Origin: a virus
Taxonomy: Duplodnaviria; Caudoviricetes
IMG/VR virus record: IMGVR_UViG_3300033074_001499
Coordinates: 20,315 to 84,314 of that record
Direction: 5' to 3' (one strand)
DNA: 64,000 nt
Numbering within the stretch: position 1 is the first letter of the stretch; each line of letters starts with the position of its first letter. Below, piece after piece: positions 1,748-57,263 of this stretch. The notes under the pieces are model-generated. The model saw only the letters and a list, made by a program, of their open reading frames with translations. It did no database searches and was not told the origin of the DNA. The translations under genes were made by a program, and so were the position numbers.

Positions 1748-3607
1748 TTAACCATGACAACTCAGACAACCATCTTTATCATATTCGATTCGTTTCTTAA
1801 CCTTCACAGCATTAAGAGGACGCTCTTTACCTGTTCCAACATCCGCTTTAACAGGCTCCTGTGCACGACAATAATAAAGACTTTTCAAGCCTTTTTCCCA
1901 AGCATAAATATGAACATCTGACATTTGTTGAGCAGTAGTAGTTGCCTGGAAGAAAAGATTTGTTGAAATTGATTGACAAACATGCTGTTGTGCATTGGAC
2001 GCTAGTTCTACAATCCACATAGGATCAATTTCACGAGCAGTAGCGAACACAGCTTTCTCATGATCTGATAGTTGTTCAATCCATTGGACGCTACCTTCTT
2101 CTTTTACAATCCTTGCCCACGTCTCTTCATTATCGATTCCATATTTTTGTAAAACTGGTTTAAGATATTTGTTCTTGATCAGAAAGCTCCCAGCCCGGCC
2201 CTGACTCACAAAACCGTTACTGGCCCAAGGCTCCCTGCTAGGAGATGCACCAAGAATACTGGCAGAAGAAGCATTCGGAGCAATTGCAGTAAGGTGACTA
2301 TTTCTAAAACCACTTCCACGACAATCAGGAGCCTCCCCCCGCAAAGCGCCAAGACGAAGACTTTCTTTCTCAGCTTTTTCTTTAATGTATGAGTGGATCA
2401 TTTGAGTATGAGACACTGCACTATTAAATCCACCAGATTCAAAAGGAATCATCTTGCTTTGCAAATAACTGTGCCAACCTAGTGTTCCAAGGCCAAGGGC
2501 TCGCTCTTTGGTTGCAGAATTAACTGCTCGACTGATACTTGGCGGAGCAAGACGAATAAAATACTCCAGAACATTATCAAGAAAACGAATCAAATCTGCA
2601 ACAATATTAGTATCTTTCCATTCATCAAATTTTTCAAGATTCAGACTACTCAAGCAACAAACAGCAGTTCGTGAAAAGCTTGTCATTAGTGTAATTTCAG
2701 AACAGAGATTACTTTGTCGAACTTTGTAAGTTGGTTTAGTAATTTGCTTAGGAAGATTTCGATTTACTGTATCAATGAAAAGAATGTAAGGCTCACCAGT
2801 TTCAAAACGAGTTTCCATTAAGTGTTTCCAAACATCACGAGCCTTTACTTTACGGCCAGTAGGTCCGTGTTTTGGATCGACAAACTCCAATTCTTCATCG
2901 GCGATAACAGCGAACATAAATTCATCAGGAATATTCAACCCATGGTTCAGGTTAAAACATTTCTTGTTTTCATCCCCACGAGTTGGATTTCGCATATCCA
3001 TAAACATTGCTAGTTCTGGGTGATTAATATCCAAATACATAGCCATACTACCACGACGAGAAGCTGTCTGACGGTAAGCAATAGTCATGTTATCATAGTC
3101 CCCAGCATGAGCCATTACACCAGTAGATTTTTCATCAGGGCTCCTATTACCAGCGTAGATACCAACACCACCTCCCATCATAGAAAGCTCTTTAGCTTCT
3201 GCTGAAGTTTTGGTTAATCCACTCTTACTGTCATCAATATAAGAAAGGAAGCAAGAAATCGGCATACCACTAGGCTCTACGTTTTCTTCCAACCAATCAC
3301 CAGCTTCTTCAAATTGTTCTTCAGTGAACGTCGGCCAATCAATCTCTACAGCGTTTGTTTGAACAGGGCTTGCATACATGAAATATCCCTGTGAAACATA
3401 GTCGTAAATACGTTGAGCAAAATCGTAATCACCAAAACTATAACAAACCGCAGCACGAGCAAAAGTTTCTTGAGGGCTGTTCTCTTTTTCTGTCTTATAG
3501 AAACCTTTTGCTGTGAGCATAACCAATCCTTGTTCTGGAAGGTTATTGTCTCGTGAGTAGTCAATAATAATTCCAAGGTGTTCTTTTACATCTTCTTTCA
3601 CTTTCAT
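1748..3607 (-). CDS. nrdA: Ribonucleotide reductase class Ia alpha subunit (no ATP cone)
   Basis: PISCFL, QSNLCSEI, AVCCLSSLNL, TAIAPNAS, KSLYY and C-terminal CLSC motifs. Confidence 0.97.
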   Translation of the reverse strand: MKVKEDVKEHLGIIIDYSRDNNLPEQGLVMLTAKGFYKTEKENSPQETFARAAVCYSFGDYDFAQRIYDYVSQGYFMYASPVQTNAVEIDWPTFTEEQFEEAGDWLEENVEPSGMPISCFLSYIDDSKSGLTKTSAEAKELSMMGGGVGIYAGNRSPDEKSTGVMAHAGDYDNMTIAYRQTASRRGSMAMYLDINHPELAMFMDMRNPTRGDENKKCFNLNHGLNIPDEFMFAVIADEELEFVDPKHGPTGRKVKARDVWKHLMETRFETGEPYILFIDTVNRNLPKQITKPTYKVRQSNLCSEITLMTSFSRTAVCCLSSLNLEKFDEWKDTNIVADLIRFLDNVLEYFIRLAPPSISRAVNSATKERALGLGTLGWHSYLQSKMIPFESGGFNSAVSHTQMIHSYIKEKAEKESLRLGALRGEAPDCRGSGFRNSHLTAIAPNASSASILGASPSREPWASNGFVSQGRAGSFLIKNKYLKPVLQKYGIDNEETWARIVKEEGSVQWIEQLSDHEKAVFATAREIDPMWIVELASNAQQHVCQSISTNLFFQATTTAQQMSDVHIYAWEKGLKSLYYCRAQEPVKADVGTGKERPLNAVKVKKRIEYDKDGCLSCHG

Positions 3608-22927: not shown

Positions 22928-22955
22928 TTGACAAATAGATAAAATGTGGTACAAT
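22928..22955 (+). promoter_or_regulatory. Sigma70-type promoter, rightward of divergent pair
   Basis: TTGACA-N16-TACAAT with TGn extension. Confidence 0.75.
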
Positions 22956-22961
22956 GGTGGC

Positions 22962-23335
22962 TATGAATGTCTTGTTTACATTCTCGGGATAGGAAATTGT
23001 GGGTAAACCTGTTCGTCTTTATCCTTAAAGAGCTGAATCAAAGCATGGCTCGACGTGAGAGATTGCCTGTAAAGGTTGGTAGCACACGGCTAGGACTCCA
23101 GCTATTGGGAGGAAAGCTACCACGGAAAATAGTACAATGCAAGCTATTTTCTACCTCGCACCTTTGATTGGTGTGCCTCATGAATGAGGGGAATATTGTG
23201 GCTCCGAGGGGAATATGATTCTCTTGTTGACAGATTCTGAAGGGTAATCTATAGTCTGTTCTAGGCGCATTAGTGCGTATGGATGGGCTAGGGAGATTGC
23301 TACCTAGAATTTGTTCACCAAGGGGAATATTATTA
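22962..23335 (+). ncRNA. Candidate large structured RNA or leader
   Basis: At least eight short stems in a non-coding stretch directly after a promoter. Confidence 0.55.
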
Positions 23336-23348
23336 GGAGATATAAGAT

Positions 23349-23732
23349 ATGATTAAAGGTAAACGTAACCAATTAGCAAATGTTGGTAATAAATTCCAAA
23401 CAGAAGTGAAGAAGGTTGTCTGTGTCTGTTCTGCTGGACTTCTTCGTTCTCCAACAGCAGCTAATGTTTTGCATATTAAATACGGTTTTAATACTCGGGC
23501 TGTAGGAGCAGATAAAGAATTTGCACTGATCCCTCTAACACAAGCTTTGATTTGGTGGGCTGATGAAATTGTTTTTGTAAATCGGGATGCATTCGATATG
23601 CTAGATGAAGAAGAAAAACAAGAAATTGAAGATGTTGGTGTAAGAGTGACAATCCTTTCAATCGAGGATGATTTTGATTGGATGGATGCAAATCTACGGT
23701 GTGAAATTCTAGAGCAATATGAGAATAAATAA
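23349..23732 (+). CDS. Protein tyrosine phosphatase-like (CX5R)
   Basis: VCVCSAGLLRSPTAA P-loop; C-terminal IEDDF. Confidence 0.82.
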   Translation: MIKGKRNQLANVGNKFQTEVKKVVCVCSAGLLRSPTAANVLHIKYGFNTRAVGADKEFALIPLTQALIWWADEIVFVNRDAFDMLDEEEKQEIEDVGVRVTILSIEDDFDWMDANLRCEILEQYENK

Positions 23733-24004: not shown

Positions 24005-24354
24005 ATATTAAAGAATTTCTTGAAAATAAAGGTTATGTCTTCTGGAAAGAAGATAGGGAAAATGAAGGTTCATACCGATCACAATCTATGAAATTTCAAA
24101 AAAGGATTAATAACCCTGATATTCCTGTGTGTGAATGTAATGAAAAACTTTTTATCAATGTTGGATATCACTTGTTCGATATTGGGAGTGGTGTTAATGA
24201 AACGTGTACAATCAGTATTTGTGCTGAGAATGAATCTTCTGATTGGTGTGATCTGAATATTTATAGTATTTCTGTGGACAAATTTAAACAAAACATTAAT
24301 TATTATGAAAATAGTCTTATTACAATGTGGGAAGTATTTTATGATGGGGCTTGA
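24001..24354 (+). CDS. Hypothetical protein
   Basis: ORF track; start moved to 24001. Confidence 0.7.
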   Translation: MNIKEFLENKGYVFWKEDRENEGSYRSQSMKFQKRINNPDIPVCECNEKLFINVGYHLFDIGSGVNETCTISICAENESSDWCDLNIYSISVDKFKQNINYYENSLITMWEVFYDGA

Positions 24355-24379
24355 CAGCCCCTTTTATTTTTTCTAAAGT
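24346..24379 (+). promoter_or_regulatory. Fused terminator/promoter 1
   Basis: GGGGC-TTGACA-GCCCC-TTTT; TTGACA-N17-TAAAGT. Confidence 0.75.
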
Positions 24380-29505: not shown

Positions 29506-29540
29506 AGGGGCTTGACAGCCCCTTTTCTTTTGTCTAGAAT
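29506..29540 (+). promoter_or_regulatory. Fused terminator/promoter 2
   Basis: AGGGGC-TTGACA-GCCCCT-TTT; TTGACA-N17-TAGAAT. Confidence 0.8.
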
Positions 29541-30749: not shown

Positions 30750-30801
30750 TTGACAATACACTACCGCTTATGTACGATGTTTGTACGTAGGCGGTATTTT
30801 T
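30750..30801 (+). promoter_or_regulatory. Promoter overlapping a 14-bp terminator hairpin
   Basis: TTGACA-N17-TACGAT; stem 30762-30775/30783-30796 then TTTTT. Confidence 0.75.
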
Positions 30802-36019: not shown

Positions 36020-36113
36020 GAGGTTGTAGCTTAATTTAAAAGCAGCGAGGAACACAGAGGCTTCATAAAAGCCAATGCATCCGTCAATGCAGGTGCAAAT
36101 CCTGCCGACCTCA
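36020..36113 (+). ncRNA. tRNA-like RNA with enlarged central domain, no CCA
   Basis: Acceptor GAGGTTG/CGACCTC, D-stem GCTT/AAGC, T-arm GCAGG-TGCAAAT-CCTGC. Confidence 0.7.
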
Positions 36114-49658: not shown

Positions 49659-49967
49659 TTATAGCACAGGAATAGGGAATGGAGCAAAACTAACAAAATC
49701 TTCTGAATACCCTTCTTCAATTTTGTAGCGAATGTAATAGGATTCTAGACGATTCTCTTTTGGTTTGCAAGAAAATTGTGCATAAATGAAATCTCCAATC
49801 TTCACAGCAGCAAGAGAACGAGATGTTTCCCAATTACGAGTAATATAACAGAAACCAGCTTTGTCCAGATTTTGATCTAAAATACGATTGAATTTATTTG
49901 GCGAAATAACATGTTTGTATTGATGATTTTTATTCTTACGTTTCATTGATTTTCCTCCATTACTCAT
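49659..49967 (-). CDS. Hypothetical protein
   Basis: ORF track. Confidence 0.65.
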   Translation of the reverse strand: MSNGGKSMKRKNKNHQYKHVISPNKFNRILDQNLDKAGFCYITRNWETSRSLAAVKIGDFIYAQFSCKPKENRLESYYIRYKIEEGYSEDFVSFAPFPIPVL

Positions 49968-51262
49968 CGGTCGTTCTCCCGAGGAAATGACTTACACGGA
50001 CCGAAGAGCCCGCAGACAGCACAGGTACGCGGATAGGGCTTTCCCTCAGCCATGAGCACGCGCTGACACGTTTTGCCCACAAACTCAACTGTGTGCGGTT
50101 GCTGGACAGTCTGCTGCTGTTCGGATGCAGGCGGGACTGGTGCGATCAACACTTTATCTTCATCAGAGAGCAGCGGGCCAATGCATCGCCAGCCGTGCAT
50201 CTTGACGGACTGCAAGCTGCCGATCTTCAGAGGGCCTGGCTGCCCCACTTCGAAATCGACAGGTGAAGAGCCGTCGGCATTCTTGCCGATGAAAACGCAG
50301 TGCTGAATGTCGATTCTTGGGACGGCCAGTTCGTTGGTGCGCGAGACTGTTTTTAGCATTGCAGCTACTCGATCCCGCATCGACTCACCGTTGACCACAA
50401 CGCAGTTCATCCCGCAGCGCAGAAGGTCAGATAGAAGCTCTTCCAGCCCATGCGGCACCCCAGCAGCAGGCGGGGCTGCAGTTGCGTGATCGGCAAACGT
50501 CATAGGCATGCCGAGTGACACGGCGATGCTGCGCTCTAGCAGGGCGCCTTTGCTTTTTTCCCAACCAGGCAGGAAGTGGACGGATTCGCACCGCGAGAGT
50601 TGAGCGATGTCATAACGCAAGTAATCGCACCACCCTGCGCCATCTACGATGCCATGATCTGCGGGATTGACTACATCAAAGCCAACGCTACGAAGCCGTG
50701 CAGCCTCTGCATTAAATGCAGGAAAATTGAACTCAGCGTATCCAGTCATTGGGCCCGCCAGATAAACGCGATTGCGACGGCTATCTGCAAGTTGAATCTG
50801 TTGTGCAGCAGCAGGCGGGGCGGAGAGCGCGGCGTCACGCTCTTGCTCGGCCGTGGCACACGCAACAGCAACTTCGTGCAGGCGGCTATTAGCGCAGGAG
50901 ACTTCAGTGCGCAGGCCGGCCACGATGCGCTGATGCTGGGCGACGGTCATCAGGGGTTCACTGCAGCACACATCCTGGGCTGCCTTCACTACGCAGGATG
51001 TGTGGCCGTGGCGACGCATGAGGTTCAGATCGCTGGGGTCAGCCCACGCCACCACCTCCACCTCTTCCCCATCCACGATATGGGCAGGGGATTTGAATAG
51101 TGGATCAGAATCAATAAAAACTTCATCAGGAATATTTTCCCAATTTCGTCGTAGAACCTCAAACTCACCTTCATTCCATAGATTCAGAAACAAAATTGAA
51201 TCAGAGTCATCATCACATTTCTCAAGTGCATATTTAATTGCTGCTACTGCTGAATCATTCAT
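49964..51262 (-). CDS. Mosaic protein with DUF4406 (nucleoside deoxyribosyltransferase-like) domain, GC-rich
   Basis: RVYLAGPMTG...NFPAFN.EA...NPA...DI..L..C....LPGWEKSKGA.LE; start 51262 (AAGGAG RBS). Confidence 0.82.
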   Translation of the reverse strand: MNDSAVAAIKYALEKCDDDSDSILFLNLWNEGEFEVLRRNWENIPDEVFIDSDPLFKSPAHIVDGEEVEVVAWADPSDLNLMRRHGHTSCVVKAAQDVCCSEPLMTVAQHQRIVAGLRTEVSCANSRLHEVAVACATAEQERDAALSAPPAAAQQIQLADSRRNRVYLAGPMTGYAEFNFPAFNAEAARLRSVGFDVVNPADHGIVDGAGWCDYLRYDIAQLSRCESVHFLPGWEKSKGALLERSIAVSLGMPMTFADHATAAPPAAGVPHGLEELLSDLLRCGMNCVVVNGESMRDRVAAMLKTVSRTNELAVPRIDIQHCVFIGKNADGSSPVDFEVGQPGPLKIGSLQSVKMHGWRCIGPLLSDEDKVLIAPVPPASEQQQTVQQPHTVEFVGKTCQRVLMAEGKPYPRTCAVCGLFGPCKSFPRENDR

Positions 51263-51986
51263 TTGTAATCTCCTTTTTACATTGTTTCGGGATAAGATCA
51301 TATTTCTTTTTAATTTCAGCTACACCTTTCTTGATTCCATTTTGCACAGCTTGTTCGATTTCGTCAAGCAGATTAAATTGTTCTTCTGGTTCTTCATTCT
51401 CTTCTTGGCTACTTTCAACCAAAGCTTGTCGATAATCATACATTTTCTCAAGACGTTCTGCAAGCTGGTCAGCATCAAAATAAAACGGAGTGCCTTTGAT
51501 AACGTCCTCCAGATCATCTTGACTCAGGAAACCACTATACACATCTTCATACAATTTACGAAGCTGTTTTCGTGAGAAATTGGCATGTTCATAAATATCT
51601 GTATCTTTTGCCATCAAACCATATGTGCTCGTGTGGATCATCAGATTTGATGTGTCATCTAGGACATGTTCCCGACACGACAAAGCAAGAATACTGCCAG
51701 CAGAGCTACAAGCAGGTCCAATAATTGCTACAGTGTGGGCGGGAGTATTGAACAATGCACGTTTAAAAAGCATTGCCGTATCTAGCACACCACCATCTGT
51801 ACAAATATCAAGCACAATTGTGTCCATTTCCGATGCAGTATTAATCAAATTCAGTTCATCAAGATAATCCCCAGGATTACCAATATCTTCATAAATCTGA
51901 ATAACATGCGTATTTGCTACTGTTTGATTAGTTGAAATACGTGATGGTTTTTGCATCAGGGGAATTAGGTTATCATCATTTCGCAT
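51255..51986 (-). CDS. ClpP-family serine protease
   Basis: ICTDGG, ACSAGS (Ser), LMIH (His). Confidence 0.85.
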   Translation of the reverse strand: MRNDDNLIPLMQKPSRISTNQTVANTHVIQIYEDIGNPGDYLDELNLINTASEMDTIVLDICTDGGVLDTAMLFKRALFNTPAHTVAIIGPACSSAGSILALSCREHVLDDTSNLMIHTSTYGLMAKDTDIYEHANFSRKQLRKLYEDVYSGFLSQDDLEDVIKGTPFYFDADQLAERLEKMYDYRQALVESSQEENEEPEEQFNLLDEIEQAVQNGIKKGVAEIKKKYDLIPKQCKKEITNE

Positions 51987-54337: not shown

Positions 54338-54553
54338 TTTTGTAGCCATTTTGGATTCCTCCTTTGTTTACGTTCTCTCATTGTACCACAAATTTCTACA
54401 AGGTCAACACACCATATCAAAAATATTTTTAACGAAGAGCTTGCAAAATTTTCAATACATGATATAATATGGCACATATGTAGAGAAATCTCTACTCGGG
54501 ATGTGTTGGGGGCTAACTGTAACGGGCGATTCATCCTTAAAGCAAACCAGGAA

Positions 54554-54836
54554 GTCAGTATATTGCAAACACCAGTCGAAAGAAAGGGGTGTTTCTGACA
54601 GCGAGTAAGATCGTATAAAAGCCTTTCAAGTAGAGTAATCTTACCAAACCTCTACCCGCCACAAGCTGTACCTACCAGACTTGTGTGAATCTTCTTGTCT
54701 CAATCGGAATGGCCTTTTGGTTTTTGTAGGTTGATGAGGTTGGAGATTCAGGATAAGACCGAATCCTTCGTCTTAGGCACAATTCTGTGTATGGCGAGGG
54801 CTTAGGAGTAATCTATCCTGAATTTCTGAACTCATC
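54554..54836 (+). ncRNA. Candidate pseudoknotted structured RNA
   Basis: Nested stems, GNRA loop, two 6-bp loop-distal pairings, 13-bp stem with G-U pairs favouring + strand. Confidence 0.6.
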
Positions 54837-54874
54837 GGAATGTATAACTATTAGATACTAAATTAGGAGAAAGT

Positions 54875-55737: not shown

Positions 55738-55767
55738 TTGACAAATACTAATAATATAGTATATACT
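55738..55767 (+). promoter_or_regulatory. Sigma70 promoter
   Basis: TTGACA-N18-TATACT. Confidence 0.7.
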
Positions 55768-55773
55768 ATAGCT

Positions 55774-55877
55774 TATATAGTGAATAAAAATATTTCTCCT
55801 AAATCACATGTCTTCTCCTTCATGTGATCCTCCAATAACCCTTGGTTATTTCTCCTAGCCAGGGGTTATTTCTTTTT
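55774..55877 (+). ncRNA. Candidate anti-Shine-Dalgarno sRNA
   Basis: Two hairpins with UCUCCU loops, last followed by a U-rich tail; own promoter. Confidence 0.7.
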
Positions 55878-56560: not shown

Positions 56561-56635
56561 CTTTTATAGCAAATTACTCTTTGTAGGGTTTGTTGCATGT
56601 CCCTGTTGCGACATTGAGTAATTTGACTATAGGAG
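56561..56635 (+). promoter_or_regulatory. RBS-sequestering hairpin upstream of HNH gene
   Basis: 19-bp stem 56561-56579/56616-56635 includes AGGAG. Confidence 0.75.
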
Positions 56636-56646
56636 TTTTAAATTTT

Positions 56647-57198
56647 ATGCAAAAAGAAATCTGGAAAGATGTTGTTGGTTACGAAGAATACTTCATGGTG
56701 AGTAGCACAGGTAGGGTTTGGTCTAAGAGAACTGAAAAATTGTTAGCTCCTACACAGTTAAAAAGTGGCTATCTTGTTATAAATTCTAAGATAGGTGGTA
56801 GAAATGGCAAAGCTGTTTCTCTAAGAATTCATAGATTGGTTGCAGAGGCTTTTTTATCTGAGCCAGAAAAATCAATAAGTCAAGCTTGTTCAGAAACCCT
56901 CTACGGTAAAGTTCCTGTTAACCACAAAGACGGGGACAAAAAGAATAATTGTGTAGAAAATTTAGAATGGTGCACTTATTCTTATAATACTCGCCATGCT
57001 ATACAAAACGGCTTTCTTGTACACAAGAAGGGTTTTGAAAACAGTTTATCCAAACTGACAGAAGAACAGGTTTTGGAAATAAAAAGTTGTTATGTAGCCA
57101 ATCATAAAATTTTTGGCACCAGAGCTTTAGCAAAGAAATACAATGTGCATCACACGACAATAAGTAGAATTGTCAGAAACAATGCTCCGCGTTCATAG
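56647..57198 (+). CDS. NUMOD4-HNH homing endonuclease
   Basis: EIWKDVVGYE..FMVSSTGRV (NUMOD4); HRLVAEAF...VNHKDGDKKNN..NLEW; start 56647. Confidence 0.9.
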   Translation: MQKEIWKDVVGYEEYFMVSSTGRVWSKRTEKLLAPTQLKSGYLVINSKIGGRNGKAVSLRIHRLVAEAFLSEPEKSISQACSETLYGKVPVNHKDGDKKNNCVENLEWCTYSYNTRHAIQNGFLVHKKGFENSLSKLTEEQVLEIKSCYVANHKIFGTRALAKKYNVHHTTISRIVRNNAPRS

Positions 57199-57263
57199 TT
57201 TAATTGGCAAAACCCTAGACTTCCAATCTAGTGTTCCCAGATCGTGGCTGGGTGGACGCTCCA
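57189..57263 (+). tRNA. tRNA-Gly(UCC), atypical T-loop
   Basis: GCGTTCA/TGGACGC-T-CCA; CTAGA-CTTCCAA-TCTAG; CCCAG-ATCGTGG-CTGGG. Confidence 0.88.

Follow-up and report, generated by a model that had tools for sequence, protein, structure and literature searches.

The locus analysed here raises the question of what is produced from the almost 400 nt that separate an early phage promoter from the first gene behind it, and of what this stretch does. The window, i.e., the whole stretch of DNA that was analysed, comprises 64 kb out of an 84.3-kb IMG/VR phage record and exhibits the layout of the Felix-O1-like myovirus type. The genes of the primase-helicase and of the family-A DNA polymerase are on the minus strand, up to about 3 kb leftward from a pair of divergent promoters at 22.9 kb, and small early genes run rightward from this pair. 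Elsewhere in the window, positions 50001-51000, within a 445-codon minus-strand ORF (49964-51301), have a G+C content of 0.58 in a genome of about 0.36, a possible sign of inserted foreign DNA or of an unusual domain. The rightward promoter, P1 (22928-22955, plus strand), exhibits a TTGACA box, a 16-bp spacer, a TACAAT box, and a TG extension. It is among the best sigma-70 matches of the region, and its transcript probably starts near 22962. The leftward promoter, back to back with P1 (22875-22902, minus strand), has a leader of only about 40 nt. After P1, the first good ribosome-binding site (RBS) with an ATG is found only at 23335-23349. Structured leaders such as nut and put have been the source of much of the knowledge on transcription control and, to our knowledge, few phage leader RNAs have been described since. 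An initial sequence-only reading had proposed that this locus and a second operon start at 54.5 kb carry a multi-hairpin non-coding leader, being either a large ncRNA or an antiterminator resembling put of phage HK022.

Based on folding, blastn, alignments, and ORF comparison, the stretch 22962-23348 (plus strand), referred to as leader A, is a real, conserved, strand-specific, and structured non-coding RNA. Its 387 nt fold with a predicted energy of -121.5 kcal/mol, versus -104.9 +/- 5.2 kcal/mol for dinucleotide shuffles (z -3.2), and none of the 100 shuffles folds as well. A blastn search of 50,697 phage records returned a sole hit, in Pseudomonas phage vB_PsaM_M1 (M1, Ounavirinae), with 73% identity over 305 nt. 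This copy is at the equivalent site, behind a divergent promoter pair. The proteins of M1 and of the window phage share 23% identity for the helicase, 29-31% for the polymerase, 41% for the large terminase, and 64% for the portal, and the leader is the sole non-coding segment among the 11 that blastn aligns between the two genomes. In the IMG/VR contig L003, promoter and leader are about 97% identical to those of A. Additional loci were fetched through the neighbouring pyrimidine-dimer glycosylase and the portal protein, and the whole records were scanned with two covariance models of the 3' part of the leader, R1, built from A, L003, and M1 only, and R3, its refined version. Four members were added in this way: L040, a full-length A-type leader; L140, at the second leader position of a sister contig to L003; L141, which is of the type of the second leader of the window (B-type); and L097, a third type (C) with a 500-nt leader. 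Including the window paralogue, leader B, the family consists of 8 copies from 6 phages, which is a small sample, and each copy is located at a divergent junction behind a promoter of the P1 type with a sigma-70 consensus.

The family is restricted in its distribution. About 120 other viral records were scanned with the models of the 3' domain without any match, including those of G003, G055, and PAK_P3, which indicates that the family is sporadic and the model specific. G003, whose helicase is 91% identical, and G055 are close relatives of the window phage, and both are devoid of the 3' domain. In blastn searches of cultured phages, the M1 leader retrieved only its own record, and the B, L141, and C leaders retrieved nothing. 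Exact-pattern scans of IMG/VR yielded only L003 and three chance matches, which were rejected by the model, and a degenerate core pattern yielded nothing in metagenome contigs. No second copy of the leader was found in M1. Other long non-coding leaders are present at the same junction in relatives with 54-91% identical helicases (L006, around 3545-3110 on the minus strand; L007, 5150-5330; L008, 5320-5870). By eye, the L006 leader has short motifs in common with the central domain of A, and neither model scores it.

With regard to coding capacity, the 66-codon ORF of leader A (22967-23167) shrinks to 22 codons in L003, whose copy is 97% identical, and neither L040 nor M1 has it. The conserved ORF that a small protein-coding gene would have is not found among the members, and the indels between leader A and the M1 copy have lengths that are not multiples of three. 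The proposal of a non-coding leader behind the 22928-22955 promoter is thus confirmed, with an extent of 22962-23348. The possibility of small peptides encoded behind Shine-Dalgarno-like repeats was rejected, as their start codons and frames are not retained in L003 or M1. In the M1 record (L001, OP714164.2), an annotated hypothetical protein of 57 codons, UZS00817.1 (3441-3614), spans the conserved 3' RNA domain. This CDS has no counterpart in the other members and is probably a miscall.

The 3' domain (23216-23332, plus strand), as described by models R1 and R3 and by pair counts, is a long irregular hairpin comprising helices P10, P11, P11a, P11b, P12, and P13 and an invariant internal-loop core. 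In the alignment of the eight sequences, 94.9% of the cells are paired by standard pairs and 27 of the 36 pairs show compensatory changes on both sides. The underlying alignments were fitted to the model, a procedure biased towards structure, against which stands the detection of B by a model that had not seen it. The covariation score of 0.727 compares with 0.264 +/- 0.030 in shuffles, none of 500 being as high, and the pairing falls to 30-49% when the partner columns are slid by 1-3 positions. Several G-U pairs and the internal loop are invariant in all eight sequences, and the model scores 13.7 bits on the reverse strand versus 108 bits on the forward strand. The constraint therefore acts on the plus-strand RNA. 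In every member, P10 and P11 add up to a quasi-continuous helix of about 17-22 base pairs. P11 (23232-23239 with 23305-23312) and P12 (23257-23263 with 23284-23290) are retained in the relatives and in the paralogue. Two helices of the sequence-only reading, AGATT/AATCT and TTCTAGG/CCTAGAA, clash with P11 and P12 and were abandoned, whereas its CGCA-TTAG-TGCG hairpin, which corresponds to P13, is present and retained in the relatives.

The remainder of leader A consists of smaller helices, all on the plus strand, and here the pairings that had been read from the letters are found again. The P1 hairpin (22965-22983; GAATGT/ACATTC, 22965/22978), identified by folding, is at the extreme 5' end, and a hairpin of other sequence and length occupies the same site in L040, M1, B, L140, and L141. 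The P2 helix (22986-23030; GGATAG/TTATCC) exhibits a conserved inner loop, is followed by a conserved UUAAAG, and is replaced by different complementary pairs in M1 and L040; in the paralogue B, the P2 layout is the same, with an identical 30-nt spacing. P4 (23065-23076) is a small hairpin capped by a GNRA tetraloop, GUAA here and GCAA in M1. P5 with its inner P5a (23078-23121; GGTAGC/GCTACC, 23078/23116, enclosing CTCCA/TGGGAG, 23096/23108) is retained, and P5 shows two compensatory pairs, from G:C to C:G in L040 and from C:G to G:U in M1. P6 (23124-23152; helix 23125/23144) carries a conserved UGCAAG loop on stems of three different sequences in A, L040, and M1. P9 (CCTCG/CGAGG, 23154-23158 with 23205-23209; 23154-23209 as a whole) encloses P7 (GCACC/GGTGT, 23157-23175) and P8 (CCTCA-TGAA-TGAGG, 23176-23189), all three being retained in the relatives. 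The complementary strands of P8 differ in sequence between A, L040, and M1, giving three versions, and P9 shows a U:A to C:G change in L040 and a C-A mismatch in M1. In A, L040, and M1, the helices P1, P2, P4, P6, and P8 thus recur at equivalent positions, with complementary strands that differ in sequence.

On a fixed alignment, the covariation of the central domain is weak (2 of 26 pairs), many pairs being invariant. P5a and P7 are invariant and therefore uninformative either way, and the register of P6 shifts between members, so that column counts give it no credit. Model R2, built for the central domain, does not match B, L140, L141, or C, even with the filters off. The homology of the A and B central domains is therefore without support, and their alignment by hand is to be read as an analogy only. 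Two further features were observed in this part of the leader. The P6 loop contains a palindrome, UGCA in the window (23133-23143) and UUGCAA in M1 (around 3376-3385) and L040 (around 3427-3436), which could form a loop-loop dimer. A second internal repeat of 22 nt, 73% identical (23045-23066 and 23279-23300), exhibits copies that change in step in M1 and L040.

The paralogue, leader B (54475-54874, plus strand), is located at the second divergent operon head of the window, behind a promoter at 54441-54468 (plus strand). It comprises a 5' hairpin, a P2 with UUAAAG, a pseudoknotted central domain, and a 3' domain (54727-54845), and aligns with A along its length. The presence of such an element at 54.5 kb, already proposed from the sequence, was verified with the covariance model of the 3' domain built without B, which finds it with 29.6 bits and an E-value of 1.7e-5 in 207 kb. 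Single sequences are sufficient for nhmmer to find B, with E-values of 0.004 for A and 0.022 for M1 as queries. B and L141 are homologous over their whole length. The two pseudoknots of the B type (54630/54650 and 54670/54726 in the window; 1386/1404 and 1427/1499 in L141) are both retained in L141 at co-linear positions through fully different sequences.

An 11-nt motif is present in three copies in leader A (plus strand): copy #1 at 23186-23196, copy #2 at 23206-23216, directly 5' of the 3' domain, and copy #3 at 23320-23330, directly 3' of it, where the conserved module ends. Copies #2 and #3 thus flank the 3' hairpin. In seven of the seven independent lineages, the flank after the hairpin best matches the flank before the hairpin of the same leader, with local scores of 9-13 within a leader, whereas comparisons of unrelated leaders mostly score 4-8 and, in one pair, 9. 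The sequence of the motif varies from leader to leader, even between A and B in one genome. As it differs between leaders and matches within each leader, recognition by a shared sequence-specific protein is unlikely. The duplication of a target site by a mobile hairpin was also considered and found insufficient, as orthologues differ in the repeat while both copies in each leader stay identical.

The 5' side of the basal helix P10 is formed by segment X (23218-23231, plus strand), whose sequence is complementary to that of #2 as well as to that of #3. In the A, L040, and M1 leaders, pairing of X with #2 would form a local hairpin and pairing with #3 would extend the basal helix, and X changes together with the motif in L040 and M1. 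These two mutually exclusive pairings could explain the concerted change of the repeats in A, L040, and M1, and the competition suggests a two-state switch in A-type leaders. In B-type leaders, #2 always has one extra A. No common intramolecular partner of the repeats was found across all leaders, and the variable half of the repeat in B, L141, and C is not accounted for by any one partner. We therefore regard the switch as a hypothesis. No trans partner of the repeats stands out within the window.

Such competition is reminiscent of riboswitches, in which a conserved core is enclosed by a basal helix, one strand has an alternative partner, and the domain ends at the RBS. The 3' core could accordingly be an aptamer or a protein site, with the X/#3 closing helix stabilized by a host metabolite or factor and #2 acting as the competitor. 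The internal-loop core and the flanking G-U pairs are indeed invariant in all eight sequences, the closing helix has a co-evolving upstream competitor, and the 3' domain ends beside the RBS. However, the downstream genes are mutually unrelated, with no common pathway, so that the gene context gives no clue to a ligand. Moreover, the competitor is found upstream and not downstream of the domain, the latter forms a simple rod instead of a multi-helix junction, no known class is matched, and the X/#2/#3 scheme, which holds in A-type leaders, is unclear in B-type leaders. A riboswitch-like or protein-sensing element is thus improbable. A related and speculative idea, which we consider doubtful, is that of a conformational sensor, in which the RNA would adopt a tertiary fold and its invariant core would bind a host metabolite or factor, thereby choosing between X/#3 and X/#2.

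An internal promoter-like site, P2 (23227-23255, plus strand; TTGACA, 17 bp, TATAGT), is located within the 5' strand of P10 and P11. M1 and L040 retain this site and L141 has a good version of it, whereas in B and C (L097) it is poor or missing. It is probably real in the A-type leaders and not a feature of the whole family. It would yield a shorter second transcript without most of the fold, which would count against a leader acting in cis. A third promoter, at the repeated TACAAT at 23133, was rejected, as it lacks a -35 box and M1 does not have it. The two consensus promoters, 299 bp apart with a common extended -35 box, could also mean that the locus is only a DNA-level element, i.e., tandem promoters with operators or a replication origin, the RNA fold being incidental. 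The junction adjoins the replication genes, the G-over-C strand bias reverses here, at 22-24 kb, and the short direct repeats could pass for iterons. Nevertheless, the compensatory changes keep pairing on one strand only, the many G-U pairs being A-C mismatches on the opposite strand, the internal promoter is not retained in B and C, and the repeat differs between the two leaders of one genome, which is at odds with a common DNA-binding protein. We regard a role restricted to the DNA as very improbable.

The conserved module extends from the divergent promoters to just past the last repeat copy, and the copies diverge beyond it. The first gene of the leader-A unit (23335-23732 with its RBS, plus strand) encodes a 127-aa protein similar to low-molecular-weight phosphotyrosine phosphatases and is not conserved behind the other leaders. 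Leader B is followed by a gene for a GIY-YIG-like protein, L097 by one for a CapR-domain protein, and L003, M1, and L040 by others again. In L003, promoter and leader are kept and the genes differ on both sides. The distance to the portal gene is about 37 kb for A and about 5 kb for B, and the B-type leader of L141, about 33 kb upstream of the portal gene, resembles A in this respect. Promoter and leader thus behave as a portable cassette placed before varying genes in this Felix-O1-like group.

The leader-A unit consists of the leader and three genes and ends at a terminator at 24346-24379 (plus strand), which is fused to the next promoter. The leader-B unit consists of the leader and one gene, after which a new promoter and a terminated small RNA (55738-55870) follow. 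There is no terminator between leader A and its first gene, so the two are predicted to be co-transcribed. The terminators at 24346-24379 and 29506-29540 each have, as their hairpin loop, the TTGACA (-35) box of the promoter that follows, and a further TTGACA promoter starts at 30750, shortly ahead of the terminator at 30762. The predicted TTGACA-loop terminators thus cut the early region into separately promoted units.

This arrangement bears on the proposal of a put-like processive antiterminator, in which the nascent leader would bind its own RNA polymerase and let it pass the downstream terminators, namely 24346, 29506, and 30762 for A and 55870 for B. The put RNA of HK022 has about 70-74 nt and two stem-loops in a V shape, and grips the beta' zinc-binding domain (PMC9378689). 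putL and putR are located behind early promoters, and a sigma-dependent pause that aids folding has been proposed for putL (PMC9378689). The leaders resemble them in being cis-encoded RNAs without an encoded protein, directly behind early sigma-70 promoters (22928-22955 and 54441-54468), and in occurring as two paralogous copies, A and B, at two operon heads, like putL and putR (PMC9378689). Terminators are found within 1 to 1.4 kb downstream, and a -10-like element in the leader could give a sigma-dependent pause comparable to that of putL (PMC9378689). In contrast to put, with its approximately 70 nt and two stems, leader A comprises about 390 nt and at least 12 helices without recognizable similarity, and its 3' domain is a single 117-nt rod. 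Furthermore, as the terminators of the A operon are fused to or preceded by fresh promoters, downstream expression needs no read-through, and the leader is missing from close relatives whose operons are laid out in the same way. A lambda-type nut site, with boxA and boxB, was not recognized by eye either: no boxA-like sequence is conserved, and the nearest candidate, around 23013-23020, is changed in the 97%-identical L003 and absent in M1. Of the two options given by the sequence-only reading, the large ncRNA is therefore supported by conservation, strand specificity, covariation, and the absence of a conserved ORF, whereas the put-like antiterminator found no positive support in size, Rfam matches, or terminator arrangement, and has little likelihood.

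Comparison with Rfam, also suggested by that reading, did not assign leader A or its homologues to any family. At the gathering thresholds, Rfam 15 identified only three tRNAs in the whole window. Leader A gave only chance matches of the microRNA type at E-values up to 10, and leader B and the L140, L141, L097, and M1 leaders gave nothing relevant at E-values up to 1, the classes without a match including ROOL, GOLLD, EAR, riboswitches, ribozymes, and r-protein leaders. Judged from these sequence comparisons, the leaders constitute an undescribed family of large (350-500 nt) and highly structured 5' leader RNAs. Two observations concern the tRNA genes of the window: the HNH/NUMOD4 endonuclease ORF at 56590-57198 ends 10 nt inside the tRNA gene at 57189-57260, and in a tRNA-like gene at 36020-36113 a 34-nt insert replaces the anticodon loop.

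The main alternative to a control element is that the leader is itself the product, i.e., a stable and abundant ncRNA that acts in trans early in infection. Processing at the 3' domain base might set it free, and its role could be that of a decoy that captures a host RNA-binding factor or a defence protein, or of an ornate RNA that assembles with itself. ROOL and GOLLD are precedents for large, conserved, tertiary-looking RNAs carried by phages (PMC5737381, PMC12286853). The leader shares with them its large size, conservation, phage carriage, tertiary look, and unassigned role, although they are stand-alone genes of 500-800 nt, often near tRNAs, and the leader is joined to coding genes as a 5' leader. 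The promoter is of the strongest type, and the leader accounts for 28-40% of its own transcription unit, or about one third, which suits an RNA as product and counts against a leader acting in cis. Its conservation is independent of the downstream gene. The GNRA tetraloops and the two covarying pseudoknots of the B type are hallmarks of a tertiary fold, and the palindromic P6 loop might engage in a kissing interaction with a second copy, which is known from oligomeric ornate RNAs (PMC12286853). The cultured Pseudomonas phage PAK_P3, which has the same divergent-promoter-to-terminase layout, makes abundant processed ncRNAs (PMC10914365), although it has no match to the 3' domain model. The ncRNA candidates derived from 5' UTRs of Pseudomonas phages by ONT-cappable-seq are likewise structured RNAs under host-type promoters, but they are short and defined by premature termination (PMC10914365). 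Against a product acting in trans, there is neither a terminator nor a recognizable processing signal between the leader and the gene, no complementary target was found in the window, and ROOL, GOLLD, and the other Rfam models do not match. A sponge of the CsrA/RsmA type was rejected: GGA motifs, which it needs, are enriched by eye in the leader but lost from the L040 repeats. A trans-acting product therefore seems rather unlikely, although it is the most serious of the alternatives.

We favour, with moderate confidence, a cis-acting leader that would control stability, processing, or translation, possibly as a switch. The absence of a terminator before the gene, the 5'-terminal hairpin, and the long helix ending at the RBS point in this direction. 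The early PL-N leader of phage lambda, with nutL and an RNase III-sensitive hairpin before the N ribosome-binding site, and the RNase III site R0.3 of T7 are comparable in having a long untranslated early leader, tandem strong promoters, and a long imperfect helix before the first RBS. In contrast to these, the present leader is larger, has a conserved multi-domain fold, and exhibits no conserved boxA or boxB. P10 and P11 provide imperfect double-stranded RNA of roughly two helical turns beside the message and are a candidate RNase III site. In the mechanism that we propose for cis control, the host sigma-70 RNA polymerase would transcribe the leader at the head of a short early unit, and the 5'-terminal hairpin and the compact, G-rich fold would protect the long untranslated RNA. 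The 3' domain, with its quasi-continuous helix of about 20 bp and its invariant core, would be the control module and, ending a few bases before the RBS, would set the processing or translation of the first gene. In the A types, pairing of X (23218-23231) with #2 would form the local hairpin and pairing with #3 would close the domain, giving the two states of the putative switch.

The leader is more conserved than the replication proteins of its carriers, is duplicated in one genome, and is exchanged as a promoter-plus-leader cassette. Conservation, duplication, and exchange together imply a strong function in early infection that would not depend on the gene behind the leader. Short repeats that evolve in concert on either side of a conserved hairpin are an uncommon mark of alternative pairing, and one that is open to testing. 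Should the conformational sensor be correct, the phage would adjust the expression of its early genes to the condition of the cell that it has infected, and the repeats would be the footprint of the switch. The cassette may also be of use as an expression part, provided that it boosts or gates the expression of whichever gene follows it. Since M1 is cultured, the function of the leader is directly testable.
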